Position numbers and translations under genes: made by a program. Below, piece after piece: positions 19,821-23,156 of a stretch of DNA of 64,000 nucleotides. The notes beneath the pieces are model-generated. The model saw nothing but the letters and a program-made list of their open reading frames with translations, did no database searches and had not been told where the DNA came from. How positions within the stretch are numbered: position 1 is the first letter of the stretch; each line of letters starts with the position of its first letter. The stretch is from Candidatus Zestomicrobium tamdykulense (GTDB lineage Archaea > Thermoproteota > Thermoprotei_A > Sulfolobales > NBVN01): positions 511 through 64,510 of the forward strand of contig JAVVFV010000003.1 in assembly GCA_039889305.1 (NCBI GenBank), read 5' to 3'.

Positions 19821-19880
19821 TTACTGTGAATAATATCATGAACTTAATTTTAGGAATCTTAACGTATTTGGGTGACTAAG

Positions 19881-21692
19881 TTGGGTGGGATTTTCGGCAT
19901 AGTATGTGTTTCTCAAATACCTGCAGGCGTAATGAGGGAAGGATTGAAGAGATTAACGTATAGGGGTTTTGACGGGACTGGACTCGCTTATCTTGATGAG
20001 ACAGGTAATATAATCATACGTAAATCTCCTAAACCATTAAACGAAGCTCTTAAAGACATTAACTTAGATGAGATTCCAGCTAGCATAGCGTTAGGGCATG
20101 TGAGATATGCTAATAGAGGTAGGCCCGTTTATGAGAACACACACCCATTAACTGATTGCAGAAATGAAATAGTTGTTGTAGGAGATGGAGTAATAGAAAA
20201 TTTTGAGGAATTCAAAGAAGTATTAGAGAAGAAAGGTCATGTGTTCGTTTCGAGAACAGATACCGAAGTTTTCGCACACTTAGTAGAAGATTTCATGAAA
20301 GAAGGAGGTAATCTCTTAGAAGCGATTGCTAGAGCTACTAGAGAGTTGAGAGGTGTTTATTCTATAGCTTTACTGATTAGAGGTACTCAAAAAATATACG
20401 TAGTCAATAATGAGCAATCAATAATGATTGGTAAGGGAGATAAGTGCTACTACATCTCGAGTGATATACCGAGTCTTTACGGTTTTTCTGAAGACGCTCT
20501 CCTACTAGGAGACGACACCTTAGCTGAGGTAGGGAGTGATGTAGTAAGAGTTTTTGATGTGAAGACATTAAGTGAGGTTAAAGAACTCACACGTAAGAGG
20601 ATCAAGTATTCTCCAGGAACGTTTGAGAAAGCTGGATACCCTCACTACATGCTGAAAGAAATCTATGAAATACCTGAAGCTTTAGTAAAGACTACATACA
20701 CCCTCATGGATAAGTACCTTAGGCTAGCTTCTATGGTAATTTATGGAGCTAAAAATACCTACGTAATAGGTACGGGTACTAGTCTTCACGCCGGTCTTGT
20801 GTCTGCTTACTACTTTAGTGAGATGTCAGACATATTTGTTAACGTGATTAGTGCTGCTGAGTTCCCGTATTACGCGTTAGACAACATATCCACAGGAACT
20901 GTAATCATAGCTATAAGTCAGAGTGGTGAGACCAGCGACGTTATTAAGAGTATCAGGTTAGCTAAGCAGAGAGGAGCCGTCGTAGTTGGAATTACTAACG
21001 TGGTTGGTTCAAGACTTTCTCTAGAGTCTAACGTGTACTTACCTATCGGTGCAGGTCCGGAGATAGCTGTGCCGGCAACAAAGACATTCACTTCGACTCT
21101 AGCTACTTTAGCTATACTCGCTACCTACACGGGACTCCACACAGGCTTGGCAGAGAAAAAAGACTTAGAAAACCTATACGATAAGTTAAGAAATTTTGCT
21201 AAAGACTTGTCAAGCAGGCTACCCTTAATCGACAATAACGTTTCTGCAATTGCAGACGAACTAATAGGTTGGGAAAGTGTCTACGTCTCTAGTAGTGGCA
21301 TAAATTACCCTATAGCTCTTGAAGGAGCTCTAAAACTTAAAGAGACAGCCTTAATACATGCTGAGGGGCTACAGCTAGGGGAGGTCAGGCACGGTCCCAT
21401 GGTCTTAATTAAGGAAGGTTACCCAATAATACTCATAAAACCTGTTGAGGAAACAGCGCTAGACCTCTATAATAAGGTAGCTAAAGAAGCTCTATCTAAG
21501 GAAGCTAAAGTAATTACTATAACTTCTGATAGGGAAGGAATTGGGAACTTAATAGATGTGCCTCACGTTGATAAAGAATTATCACCTATCGCAACAGTCG
21601 TAGCTCTTCAATTACTATCATATAGGTTAGGAAGCAAGCTTGGAAAACCTATAGATACTCCTCCAGGACTTGTCAAAGCTCTAACTATCTAG
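19881..21692 (+). CDS. glmS: GlmS-like glucosamine-6-phosphate synthase (Ntn + two SIS domains) with a degenerate glutaminase site
   Basis: GGIFG, RG.D, N.HP, TDTEV, YPHYMLKEIYE, SQSGETSD, ALEGALKLKE and HGP. The start is TTG 19881, 5 nt after GGTGA, giving MGGIFG instead of MCGI.G. Confidence 0.88.
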   Translation: MGGIFGIVCVSQIPAGVMREGLKRLTYRGFDGTGLAYLDETGNIIIRKSPKPLNEALKDINLDEIPASIALGHVRYANRGRPVYENTHPLTDCRNEIVVVGDGVIENFEEFKEVLEKKGHVFVSRTDTEVFAHLVEDFMKEGGNLLEAIARATRELRGVYSIALLIRGTQKIYVVNNEQSIMIGKGDKCYYISSDIPSLYGFSEDALLLGDDTLAEVGSDVVRVFDVKTLSEVKELTRKRIKYSPGTFEKAGYPHYMLKEIYEIPEALVKTTYTLMDKYLRLASMVIYGAKNTYVIGTGTSLHAGLVSAYYFSEMSDIFVNVISAAEFPYYALDNISTGTVIIAISQSGETSDVIKSIRLAKQRGAVVVGITNVVGSRLSLESNVYLPIGAGPEIAVPATKTFTSTLATLAILATYTGLHTGLAEKKDLENLYDKLRNFAKDLSSRLPLIDNNVSAIADELIGWESVYVSSSGINYPIALEGALKLKETALIHAEGLQLGEVRHGPMVLIKEGYPIILIKPVEETALDLYNKVAKEALSKEAKVITITSDREGIGNLIDVPHVDKELSPIATVVALQLLSYRLGSKLGKPIDTPPGLVKALTI

Positions 21693-23156
21693 AGAGTAGG
21701 TATGACCACAGCGAAGCCACAACTATTTGCAGCGTCGTTAAGAAAACTATCCTGAGCCAGTAAGACCACTCTAGACTTATTTTAGCTCTTTCACACATTC
21801 CTAGAGCTACTATGTTGGCTGTGGAACCTATTGATGTGTAGTTACCGCCCAGAGTTCCTCCATACAAGAGTACCCAGAATACTGACTTAGAGTTTGCTAA
21901 ACTACTCACTCTCTTAGCTACTGGGGTCATCGCTACTATGACAGACAATTATCAAGTAATGAACTAAATGTTGCTGCCAAAGATAGGAAGATTATGTTTA
22001 AAAGGTTGTAGTTTATGCTAGAACCACTAGTAACTGTTTTTAGACTTAAGAAGGCTATCTTAGGTGCAGCATCACTCCAAAACATAGAATGACCTAACAT
22101 AAATAACGCTATAAAAATAATATAGAGGACCCTCAACACCTCTAGTTATGAAAACCTTTAATTCTTCAGCCCTAATTTGAGTCAGTGACAAAAGTATGAA
22201 GACGTAAGGAATAAGAGGAGAGAGTGAGGATCTACGCAAGAACCGCTTAACAACGATACTAATTCCAAGAGTGGGCTGTTTAATGCTATTACTACTAGGA
22301 AGCCTACAAGTAAAGCGATGCCAGACCTAATAGCTCTACGTTCCTGTAATGTTAGATCAGCAAATGACTTAGTTCTCATGGTCTCTATATATCTTTAGTT
22401 AGCTTTGAGGATAGTATTAACAAGTAATTCCTAAGTAAAATGTATGCTGATATCAACATCACTAATAAGGTGATGAATGAGAGAGGTAATGCTCTGTAGA
22501 GAAACTCACTCACAGTTAATTAAGCTTCATAAGACACATATATTCCTATAGGATTATCTATCGGTAGCGCCATACTGCCAGTGTTAGTAGCTAGAACAAC
22601 AAGTATTACAAGAGGTCTCACGTCATGCCTAGTATTTTTCTTATGTCGAAAACCAACATGGTCACGTAAACTATGCTGGTTACTTCATCTACTGTTAAAG
22701 CTAGAAACCAAGCAAAGAAAGATAAATACATTAGTAGGTAAGGTGAGCTCCCACTTAAACTTAAGATACTAATTGCTATATACTCGAGGACTCTTAGCTT
22801 GCGTAGTATGTAAGTGAAGGTCATGCTACCTATTAAAAAGAGAACTAGCCTCCATTCAGCACCAGATATGAGTTCTTGAGGAGGAACCACACAGCAAAAA
22901 CTAGTAAGGCTACCGAAAGGAAAGCAGCAAAATACCGCAACTTTGTAGAGGTTATCGTGAGACTCACTACTAGCAAGAAAAGACCAAGTGATAAAATCTG
23001 ACGATAAATACTGCTTGAGGAATCTAGCATCTCTCCACACATAGCTAAAGTATAATTACTTCTTATAGTGCGAGGTATTGAGGATATGCTCATAAGTAGG
23101 TACGAGAAGAGAAATAAACCAACAACAAGTACAAGCACCTTAAAGGCAGGCCTCAT
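21685..23156 (-). pseudogene. Fragmented ArsB/NhaD (SLC13/P-protein-like) ion transporter
   Basis: Five or more hydrophobic fragments in different frames run from MRPAFK (ATG 23156) through LVLFLIGSM and VDEVTSIVY to GGTLGGNYTSIGSTANIV. Confidence 0.78.

Follow-up and report, generated by a model that had tools for sequence, protein, structure and literature searches.

What does a GlmS-type protein do when glycine has taken the place of the cysteine that hydrolyses glutamine? The question is raised by one gene in a 64,000-nucleotide stretch of the archaeon Candidatus Zestomicrobium tamdykulense (contig JAVVFV010000003.1, positions 511 to 64,510 of the forward strand; hereafter the window). 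The gene occupies positions 19881 to 21692 of the window and encodes a GlmS paralogue with Gly at position 1 and Asp at position 98 (residues of functional sites are numbered as in E. coli GlmS), here called the Gly1 paralogue. Comparison of its sequence and genomic surroundings with those of relatives suggests that the protein is likely to catalyse a reversible, glutamine-independent interconversion of glucosamine-6-phosphate (GlcN-6-P) with fructose-6-phosphate (Fru-6-P) and NH3, both directions being taken together. We lean slightly towards a mainly catabolic role for its clade, that of a NagB-like GlcN-6-P deaminase.

Gene start and domain architecture

The gene lies in a single long open frame in the stretch examined (19872..21692, forward strand, as for all parts of the gene given below). 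Within this frame, the coding sequence runs from TTG at 19881 to a TAG stop ending at 21692 and encodes 603 residues, an extent in line with the matches to TIGR01135 and E. coli GlmS. TTG 19881 is the best-supported of the predicted starts, giving a product that begins M-G-G-I-F-G, because of three features. A Shine-Dalgarno-like GGGTGA, read from the sequence at 19870..19875, stands 5 nt upstream; the alternative start GTG 19872 falls within that motif; and the codon preceding G-G-I-F is TTG or GTG in all ten genomes of the genus and ATG in other genera.

Pfam recognizes two SIS stretches (143.5 bits) together with class-II amidotransferase domains (GATase_6/7/4). The glmS equivalog model TIGR01135 is matched at 486.5 bits (cut-off 418.05) over model positions 2-606, and HMMER aligns residues 3-603 with the E. 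coli GlmS structures 4amv and 3ooj (E 3e-88). The N-terminal nucleophile (Ntn) class-II glutamine amidotransferase-like domain, with its hydrolytic site apparently inactivated, comprises residues 2 to about 240 (19884..20600), and the isomerase half with its two SIS domains comprises residues from about 245 to 603 (20613..21689). In an AlphaFold2 model built with 38 relatives as input, both domains are predicted confidently, with a predicted local distance difference test score (pLDDT) of 92.6 and a predicted template modelling score of 0.90, the pLDDT of the Ntn domain being 87-96 per block. Uncertainty is confined to the hinge and the final four residues, with pLDDT below 50 at residues 600-603.

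Residues of the glutaminase and isomerase sites

Residues were called from the alignment to E. coli GlmS and from the codons of the window, with the canonical GlmS of the same genome as reference. This second copy is the Cys1 paralogue for which the sequence-only reading had advised a search. It lies on contig C41, scores 716 bits against TIGR01135 and carries the motifs C-G-I-V-G, H-T-R-W-A-T-H-G, H-N-G and P-R-N-L-A-K. In GlmS, catalysis in the glutaminase domain depends on Cys1 alone, and that in the isomerase domain on Glu488, His504 and Lys603 (PMC9272926). In addition, the N-terminal Cys is indispensable for GlmS to function (PMC11822699).

The Gly1 paralogue departs from this pattern at several points of the glutaminase half. 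Gly (GGT, 19884..19886) occupies the position of the catalytic Cys1, Tyr (20106..20108) that of the channel-gate residue Trp74, and Asp (20184..20186) that of the oxyanion-hole residue Asn98, where V-H-N-G reads V-G-D-G. Moreover, HTRWATHG has become HVRYANRG, a change seen against both E. coli GlmS and the canonical copy of the genome, and YRGYDSAG has become YRGFDGTG. The C-terminal tail is altered to P-P-G-L-V-K-A-L-T-I (21663..21689), in which Arg599 is replaced by Pro and Asn600 by Gly, so that PRNLAKSVT reads PPGLVKALT. All these replacements had been named by the sequence-only reading, from the start MGGIFG through GDG to the tail, and each recurs in the alignment. No Cys is found at the nucleophile position under either the TTG 19881 or the GTG 19872 start.

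By contrast with the replaced residues, those of the SIS half are kept, as had also been proposed. ALEGALKLKE (with Lys485 and Glu488), HGP (His504) and the equivalent of Lys603 (21675..21677) are all present, as is the phosphate-binding motif SQSGET. Thus the equivalents of the isomerase residues Ser303, Ser347, Gln348, Ser349, Thr352, Lys485, Glu488, His504 and Lys603 are complete. The glutamine-pocket residues Arg26, Arg73, His86 and Asp123, absent from the earlier account, are retained too. Judged by its residues, the paralogue is predicted to have a dead site for glutamine hydrolysis and a fully intact sugar-phosphate site.

Conservation and selection in the Gly1 clade

The closest relatives of the paralogue, at 89% identity, belong to Zestosphaera (Desulfurococcaceae), and further relatives occur in Desulfurococcales, Acidilobaceae, Sulfolobaceae, Thermoproteus and Tardisphaera. 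When 162 Gly1-clade sequences are aligned with 16 canonical GlmS of this class, position 1 is Gly in 161 clade members and Ser in one, and Cys in all 16 canonical sequences. Position 98 is Asp throughout the clade (162/162) and Asn in every canonical sequence. Tyr stands at position 74 in 155 clade members and Phe in six, and Arg stands at position 77 in 151 of the 162, the canonical sequences having Trp and His, respectively, in 16 of 16. Arg26, Gly99, Asp123 and Glu125 are invariant in the clade, Arg73 is kept in 161 members and His86 in 159, and all the isomerase residues listed above, from Ser303 to Lys603, are invariant. In a tree computed without the N-terminal columns, the Gly1 and Cys1 sequences lie on opposite sides of one branch with support 100. 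Across the ten genomes of the genus, the whole gene has a ratio of nonsynonymous to synonymous substitution rates (dN/dS) of 0.077, with values of 0.093 in the N-domain and 0.068 in the SIS half.

The Gly1 state, whose conservation the sequence-only reading had left to an alignment of archaeal GlmS, is thus a property of a large archaeal clade. Strain-specific decay or sequencing error, which that reading had kept in view, is excluded by this conservation and by a dN/dS of about 0.08. On this comparative evidence, the Gly1/Asp98 branch is an old, conserved crenarchaeal GlmS lineage. Thr76, His77 and Arg599 persist in the deep sub-branches, which makes C1G, W74Y and N98D the founding changes of the clade, and the crown group that includes the paralogue later gained H77R, R599P and N600G.

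The same data bear on one alternative, namely that the protein is still a glutamine-dependent GlmS, its Gly being an error, the product of a mis-called start or offset by a substitute nucleophile. GGT is only one base from TGT, the TIGR01135 score exceeds the cut-off, and one relative has Ser1. Nevertheless, this alternative is hardly credible. The Gly of the clade comes from independent assemblies and is always accompanied by Asp98, neither start gives a Cys at or near the N-terminus, and in the Ser1 outlier Arg73 and His86 are gone too. This sole Ser1 member (G081:C6:59355-61145, M-S-G-I-F-G) lacks Pro506 as well, and from its residues looks like a relaxed outlier rather than an enzyme with a Ser nucleophile.

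The pairing of Gly1 with Asp98 was also followed in a library clustered at 50% identity and comprising 1.8 billion representatives. Among the best 150 representatives, Gly is present at position 1 in 11 besides the query (12 with it), and Gly1 is paired with Asp98 in seven counting the query. One GlmS of the library, P0272, has Gly at position 1, yet the canonical Trp74, His77, Asn98, Arg599 and Asn600. Its Gly could stem from recent loss, from a start called wrongly or from an error in sequencing.

A non-catalytic or regulatory pseudoenzyme, acting as a sensor of glutamine or of an amino sugar or as heterodimer partner of the canonical GlmS, would account for the retention of Arg73 and Asp123 of the glutamine site without the nucleophile, and for the co-occurrence with canonical GlmS in most genomes. 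We regard it as very improbable, given that the catalytic residues of the isomerase are invariant in 162 sequences, that the SIS half has the lowest dN/dS, and that the supposed GlmS partner is missing in three genomes.

Linkage with nagA and absence of NagB in the class

The genomic surroundings of the clade were compared across 351 genomes of the class. The Gly1 paralogue is present in 122 of them and NagA in 108; 80 have both, 42 the paralogue only, 28 NagA only and 201 neither, figures that are raw counts ignoring kinship, which lessens what they lend to a catabolic role. Comparison of coordinates places nagA no more than 1.3 kb from the paralogue in at least 31 genomes, which represent seven families, and at up to 12 kb from it in at least five others. 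In S. marinus and S. tokodaii the adjacent nagA scores above the TIGR00221 cut-off, and the S. marinus cluster of paralogue and nagA also contains genes for a ROK kinase, a glycosidase and a GH130 enzyme as well as one of the glycosylasparaginase type. None of the 351 genomes has NagB-I (PF01182), for which the control search was positive in eight known genomes. A search of the class for GlmD of the Thermococcus kodakarensis type at E <= 1e-45 gave no match, and as its control was equally without match, this result is not evidence of absence.

Genomes with NagA only have other GlmS-type isomerase modules. In another family of the class, NagA is fused to two SIS domains in proteins of 775-786 residues (G012, G016 and G017), whose frames are L071:646-3003 (G016:C4), L072:772-3096 (reverse strand) and L073:515-2872 (reverse strand). 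The NagA part of the fusion scores 240.6 bits against TIGR00221, above its cut-off, and the remainder corresponds to positions 246-604 of the glmS model. This putative fusion of deacetylase and deaminase shows a GlmS-type isomerase module coupled to NagA within the class. In addition, SIS-only proteins of about 350-390 residues that match the isomerase half of GlmS are found in two genera (among others at L074, L075 and L076), and some genomes with such a protein have NagA and no Gly1 paralogue. Both the NagA-fused and the SIS-only modules place outside the Gly1 clade. The modules of NagA-only genomes share with the clade the replacement of Ala by Gly after the H-A-E motif (His493/Glu495) and the loss of Lys503. 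Taken together, the sequence data predict that the step after NagA is carried out in this class by GlmS-type isomerase modules as a non-orthologous replacement, of which the Gly1 paralogue is the commonest.

The neighbourhoods also bear on which sugar the clade might use. Close to the sugar site, the clade has invariant changes of its own, with Ala400 replaced by Pro beside Val399 and an E-G-x-Q-L-G-E loop before His504; Lys503 has become Arg or Leu. Together with weak matches to the FrlB and NagB-II models and the uninformative contexts of the nagA-less lineages, these changes might point to a deaminase, isomerase or deglycase acting on another phosphorylated amino sugar or ketosamine, in the manner of AgaS or FrlB. 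Such a substrate is quite improbable, however, as the phosphate-binding and catalytic residues of the GlmS reaction are all invariant, the recurrent neighbour NagA yields GlcN-6-P, and no aga or frl gene is present in the neighbourhoods examined.

S. tokodaii offers a further candidate identity. Its protein ST2245 is reportedly a GlcN-6-P 4-epimerase (EC 5.1.3.42), a finding said to come from Dadashipour et al. in 2018, and the Gly1 paralogue might be its orthologue. In the S. tokodaii genome (100% match), the canonical GlmS, which we take to be ST2186, lies at 2,185.6 kb, a fit from which ST numbers appear to follow kilobases. Its Gly1 paralogue, accession BAK54820.1, is found at 2,553.9 kb (2,553,850-2,555,592) with no GlmS-like gene near 2,245 kb, and no SIS or GATase gene is present between 2,238 and 2,252 kb. 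ST2245 is not mentioned in the papers searched. The identity with ST2245 was therefore rejected, and there is next to no chance that it holds. A 267-residue short-chain dehydrogenase/reductase at 2246473-2247276 (about 2,246.5 kb) is a candidate for ST2245 if ST numbers follow kilobases.

Proposed reaction and role of the N-terminal domain

The linkage with nagA and the class-wide absence of NagB favour a deaminase/synthase pair. The sequence-only reading had offered three functions, an ammonia-dependent synthase, a GlcN-6-P deaminase and a sugar-phosphate isomerase with a repurposed Ntn domain; the first two, which are the directions of one reversible reaction, come out as the predicted function in preference to the third. 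The reaction would be GlcN-6-P + H2O <-> Fru-6-P + NH3, in which Lys603 would form the Schiff base, Glu488 would act as base and His504 would open the ring. In a class without NagB, the paralogue would stand in as GlcN-6-P deaminase and, in most lineages, would act directly after NagA.

The N-domain would probably serve as a non-hydrolytic module for ligand binding, ammonia handling or regulation. It appears to be no relic, as it is under purifying selection, keeps the residues that bind the amino acid and has an invariant Asp at the old oxyanion site. The earlier proposal of a repurposed Ntn domain fits well with Asp98 and with these retained ligand-binding residues.

It is conceivable, if doubtful, that a new site has arisen from the dead glutaminase domain, either for capture of NH4+ that feeds the channel or for sensing of glutamine or another amino acid that gates the sugar site. 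In such a site, Gly1 would give room, Asp98 would bring a negative charge to the former position of the glutamine amide, and Arg73 and Asp123 would hold the amino-acid backbone. The NH4+ option, if true, would give the first GlmS-type enzyme working on free ammonia that is able to replace GlmS, as in the three GlmS-less genomes described below. The sensing option would give a GlcN-6-P deaminase/synthase switch under allosteric control by nitrogen.

Carriers without nagA and carriers without canonical GlmS

Several observations weigh against a mainly catabolic role, and many of them come from this genome and its genus. The genome is 94% complete, NagA was not found in it (best TIGR00221 match 29.6 bits), and S. 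marinus NagA gives weak partial matches only, of 29 bits or less. NagA is equally absent from the nine other genomes of the genus (0/10 with this one), and in the class as a whole 42 of the 122 paralogue carriers are without it. Neither NagB nor a PIG-L deacetylase was found in this genome, and there is no separate GlmD-like protein, the model matching only the two GlmS paralogues. The neighbours of the gene, a YbaK-like gene upstream and a decayed transporter gene downstream, are unrelated to sugars. Therefore, with neither nagA nor PIG-L and with such a neighbourhood, no source of GlcN-6-P for catabolism is visible here, and the function in this genus is not explicable solely as the step after NagA. 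Moreover, a plain deaminase of the GlmD or NagB-II type requires no N-domain, yet the clade keeps Arg26, Arg73, His86, Asp123 and Asp98 with few or no exceptions.

Three genomes of one genus (G191, G201 and G203; 97-99% complete) add to this side. They have the paralogue and a SIS-only protein (G191:C62:446-1399, G201:C2:95181-96194 and G203:C7:44605-45573) and no canonical GlmS; their congener G189 has the paralogue and a canonical GlmS. Crenarchaeal N-glycans begin from a chitobiose core and hence need uridine diphosphate N-acetylglucosamine (UDP-GlcNAc; PMC8993221). With this need and no canonical GlmS, these three genomes must obtain GlcN-6-P either by salvage, as nagA is present twice in each, or through one of the Cys-less enzymes aminating Fru-6-P. 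The lack of canonical GlmS in three carriers would fit an anabolic role.

The alternative is a mainly anabolic, ammonium-dependent GlcN-6-P synthase, in which NH4+ would be taken up at the remodelled site with Gly1 and Asp98 and NH3 would reach Fru-6-P by way of the retained channel. Such an enzyme would back up or replace glutamine-dependent GlmS. Its chemistry would be that of the deaminase in reverse. The UDP-GlcNAc requirement of the N-glycans, the GlmS-less genomes beside their congener with both genes, the retention of the gene in nagA-less genera in housekeeping-like contexts, and an N-domain under strong selection whose former amide/oxyanion site invariably has an acidic residue are all in line with it. 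On the other hand, nearly all carriers have a canonical GlmS as well, the position of nagA close beside the gene in at least 31 genomes points to catabolism, and the GlmS-less genomes, with two nagA copies each, could salvage N-acetylglucosamine (GlcNAc). In addition, canonical GlmS is the one amidotransferase unable to use free ammonia (PMC9272926). We therefore consider a mainly anabolic synthase unlikely, though relatively more plausible in this nagA-less genus, and retain the catabolic deaminase as the preferred role of the clade. Glutamine synthetase is present in this genome, so that a shortage of glutamine is not an obvious cause for an NH3 route.

Synteny is constant within the genus. 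All ten genomes have an intact gene in the order YbaK-like gene, paralogue, CitMHS-type transporter and DUF2148. In the window, the transporter gene is fragmented (21685-23156, reverse strand), and in two other Zestosphaera assemblies it is an intact CitMHS-family gene of 506 residues (L022 and L023: 9884-11404). The gene contexts of the nagA-less Thermosphaera, Desulfurococcus and an Acidilobaceae genus are equally uninformative.

Other genes of amino-sugar metabolism were also inspected, and this genome has a ROK kinase and a GlmA-like glycosidase. The glycosidase, a GHL6/GH42M protein of 738 residues (L060:3363-5579, contig C46) with a weak GlmA-like second domain, has a homologue in the S. 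marinus cluster. As a partner of the paralogue in a GlcN route of the Thermococcus type it was rejected, because its distribution departs from that of the paralogue: it is present in 104 of the 351 genomes, in this genome and in five of the nine others of the genus, and in none of 47 Sulfolobaceae-type genomes. A glycosylasparaginase-type gene (Asparaginase_2, C15:67298-68200) just past the end of the window likewise has a homologue in the S. marinus cluster. At L061:5727-7875 (contig C10), a ROK-family sugar kinase gene stands directly upstream of a gene for a sugar-1-phosphate nucleotidyltransferase with a hexapeptide-repeat, acetyltransferase-like tail (GlmU or ST0452-like). The arrangement suggests a pair leading from salvage to UDP-sugar.

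Implications for annotation and for Ntn amidotransferases

All members of the Gly1 clade are publicly annotated as 'glutamine--fructose-6-phosphate transaminase'. Because the clade is annotated as GlmS, reconstructions of Sulfolobales and Desulfurococcales metabolism count two GlmS and no GlcN-6-P deaminase. The class lacks NagB though about one third of its genomes have NagA, and recognition of the clade would close this gap in GlcNAc catabolism. A rule for re-annotation can be read directly from the sequence, namely Gly1, Tyr74 and Asp98.

The clade is also a natural experiment on an Ntn amidotransferase, in which the nucleophile was lost more than one family-level divergence ago. The glutaminase fold, the ligand-binding residues and the partners along the inter-domain channel have nevertheless remained under strong selection after that loss. 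Our comparison thus informs the evolution of ammonia channelling, of communication between domains and of pseudo-active sites.

Comparison with known enzymes

Searches of the literature found neither a characterized Cys-less GlmS paralogue nor a paper on the Gly1 clade, and the paralogue is here set beside the known enzymes that it resembles. It shares with GlmS/GFAT (EC 2.6.1.16; TIGR01135; E. coli 1jxa, 2j6h and 4amv) the architecture of an Ntn domain followed by two SIS domains, and is collinear with it over 600 residues. Like GlmS, it has all the isomerase residues together with Arg26, Arg73, His86 and Asp123. Unlike GlmS, it has Gly for Cys1, Tyr for Trp74 and Asp for Asn98, with Gly99 kept, and its crown group further differs in His77 to Arg, Lys503 to Arg, Arg599 to Pro and Asn600 to Gly. 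Moreover, the Gly1 clade stands apart from the canonical GlmS that these genomes have.

GlmD (Thermococcus kodakarensis type, NF041128) and NagB-II (Shewanella SO3506 type, NF046059) are SIS-only GlcN-6-P deaminases that act after deacetylation of GlcNAc-6-phosphate or phosphorylation of GlcN. Homology links them to the isomerase half of GlmS, and the paralogue shares with them the two SIS domains and the catalytic Glu, His and C-terminal Lys. They are, however, stand-alone modules of about 330 residues without an amidotransferase domain, whereas the paralogue has 603 residues and an N-domain that is well folded in the model. It also scores far under the cut-offs of both deaminase models (NF041128, 91.4 versus 580 bits; NF046059, 115.6 versus 430 bits). 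NagB-I (PF01182) shares with the paralogue the proposed role and the typical neighbourhood with nagA, but its fold is unrelated. In the fusion of NagA with two SIS domains, NagA stands in the place of the dead amidotransferase domain, and the isomerase part is a separate lineage. Lacking the glutaminase features that define GlmS, and agreeing with the deaminases neither in model score nor in architecture, the Gly1 paralogue is best described as a member of an uncharacterized, mis-annotated GlmS subfamily.

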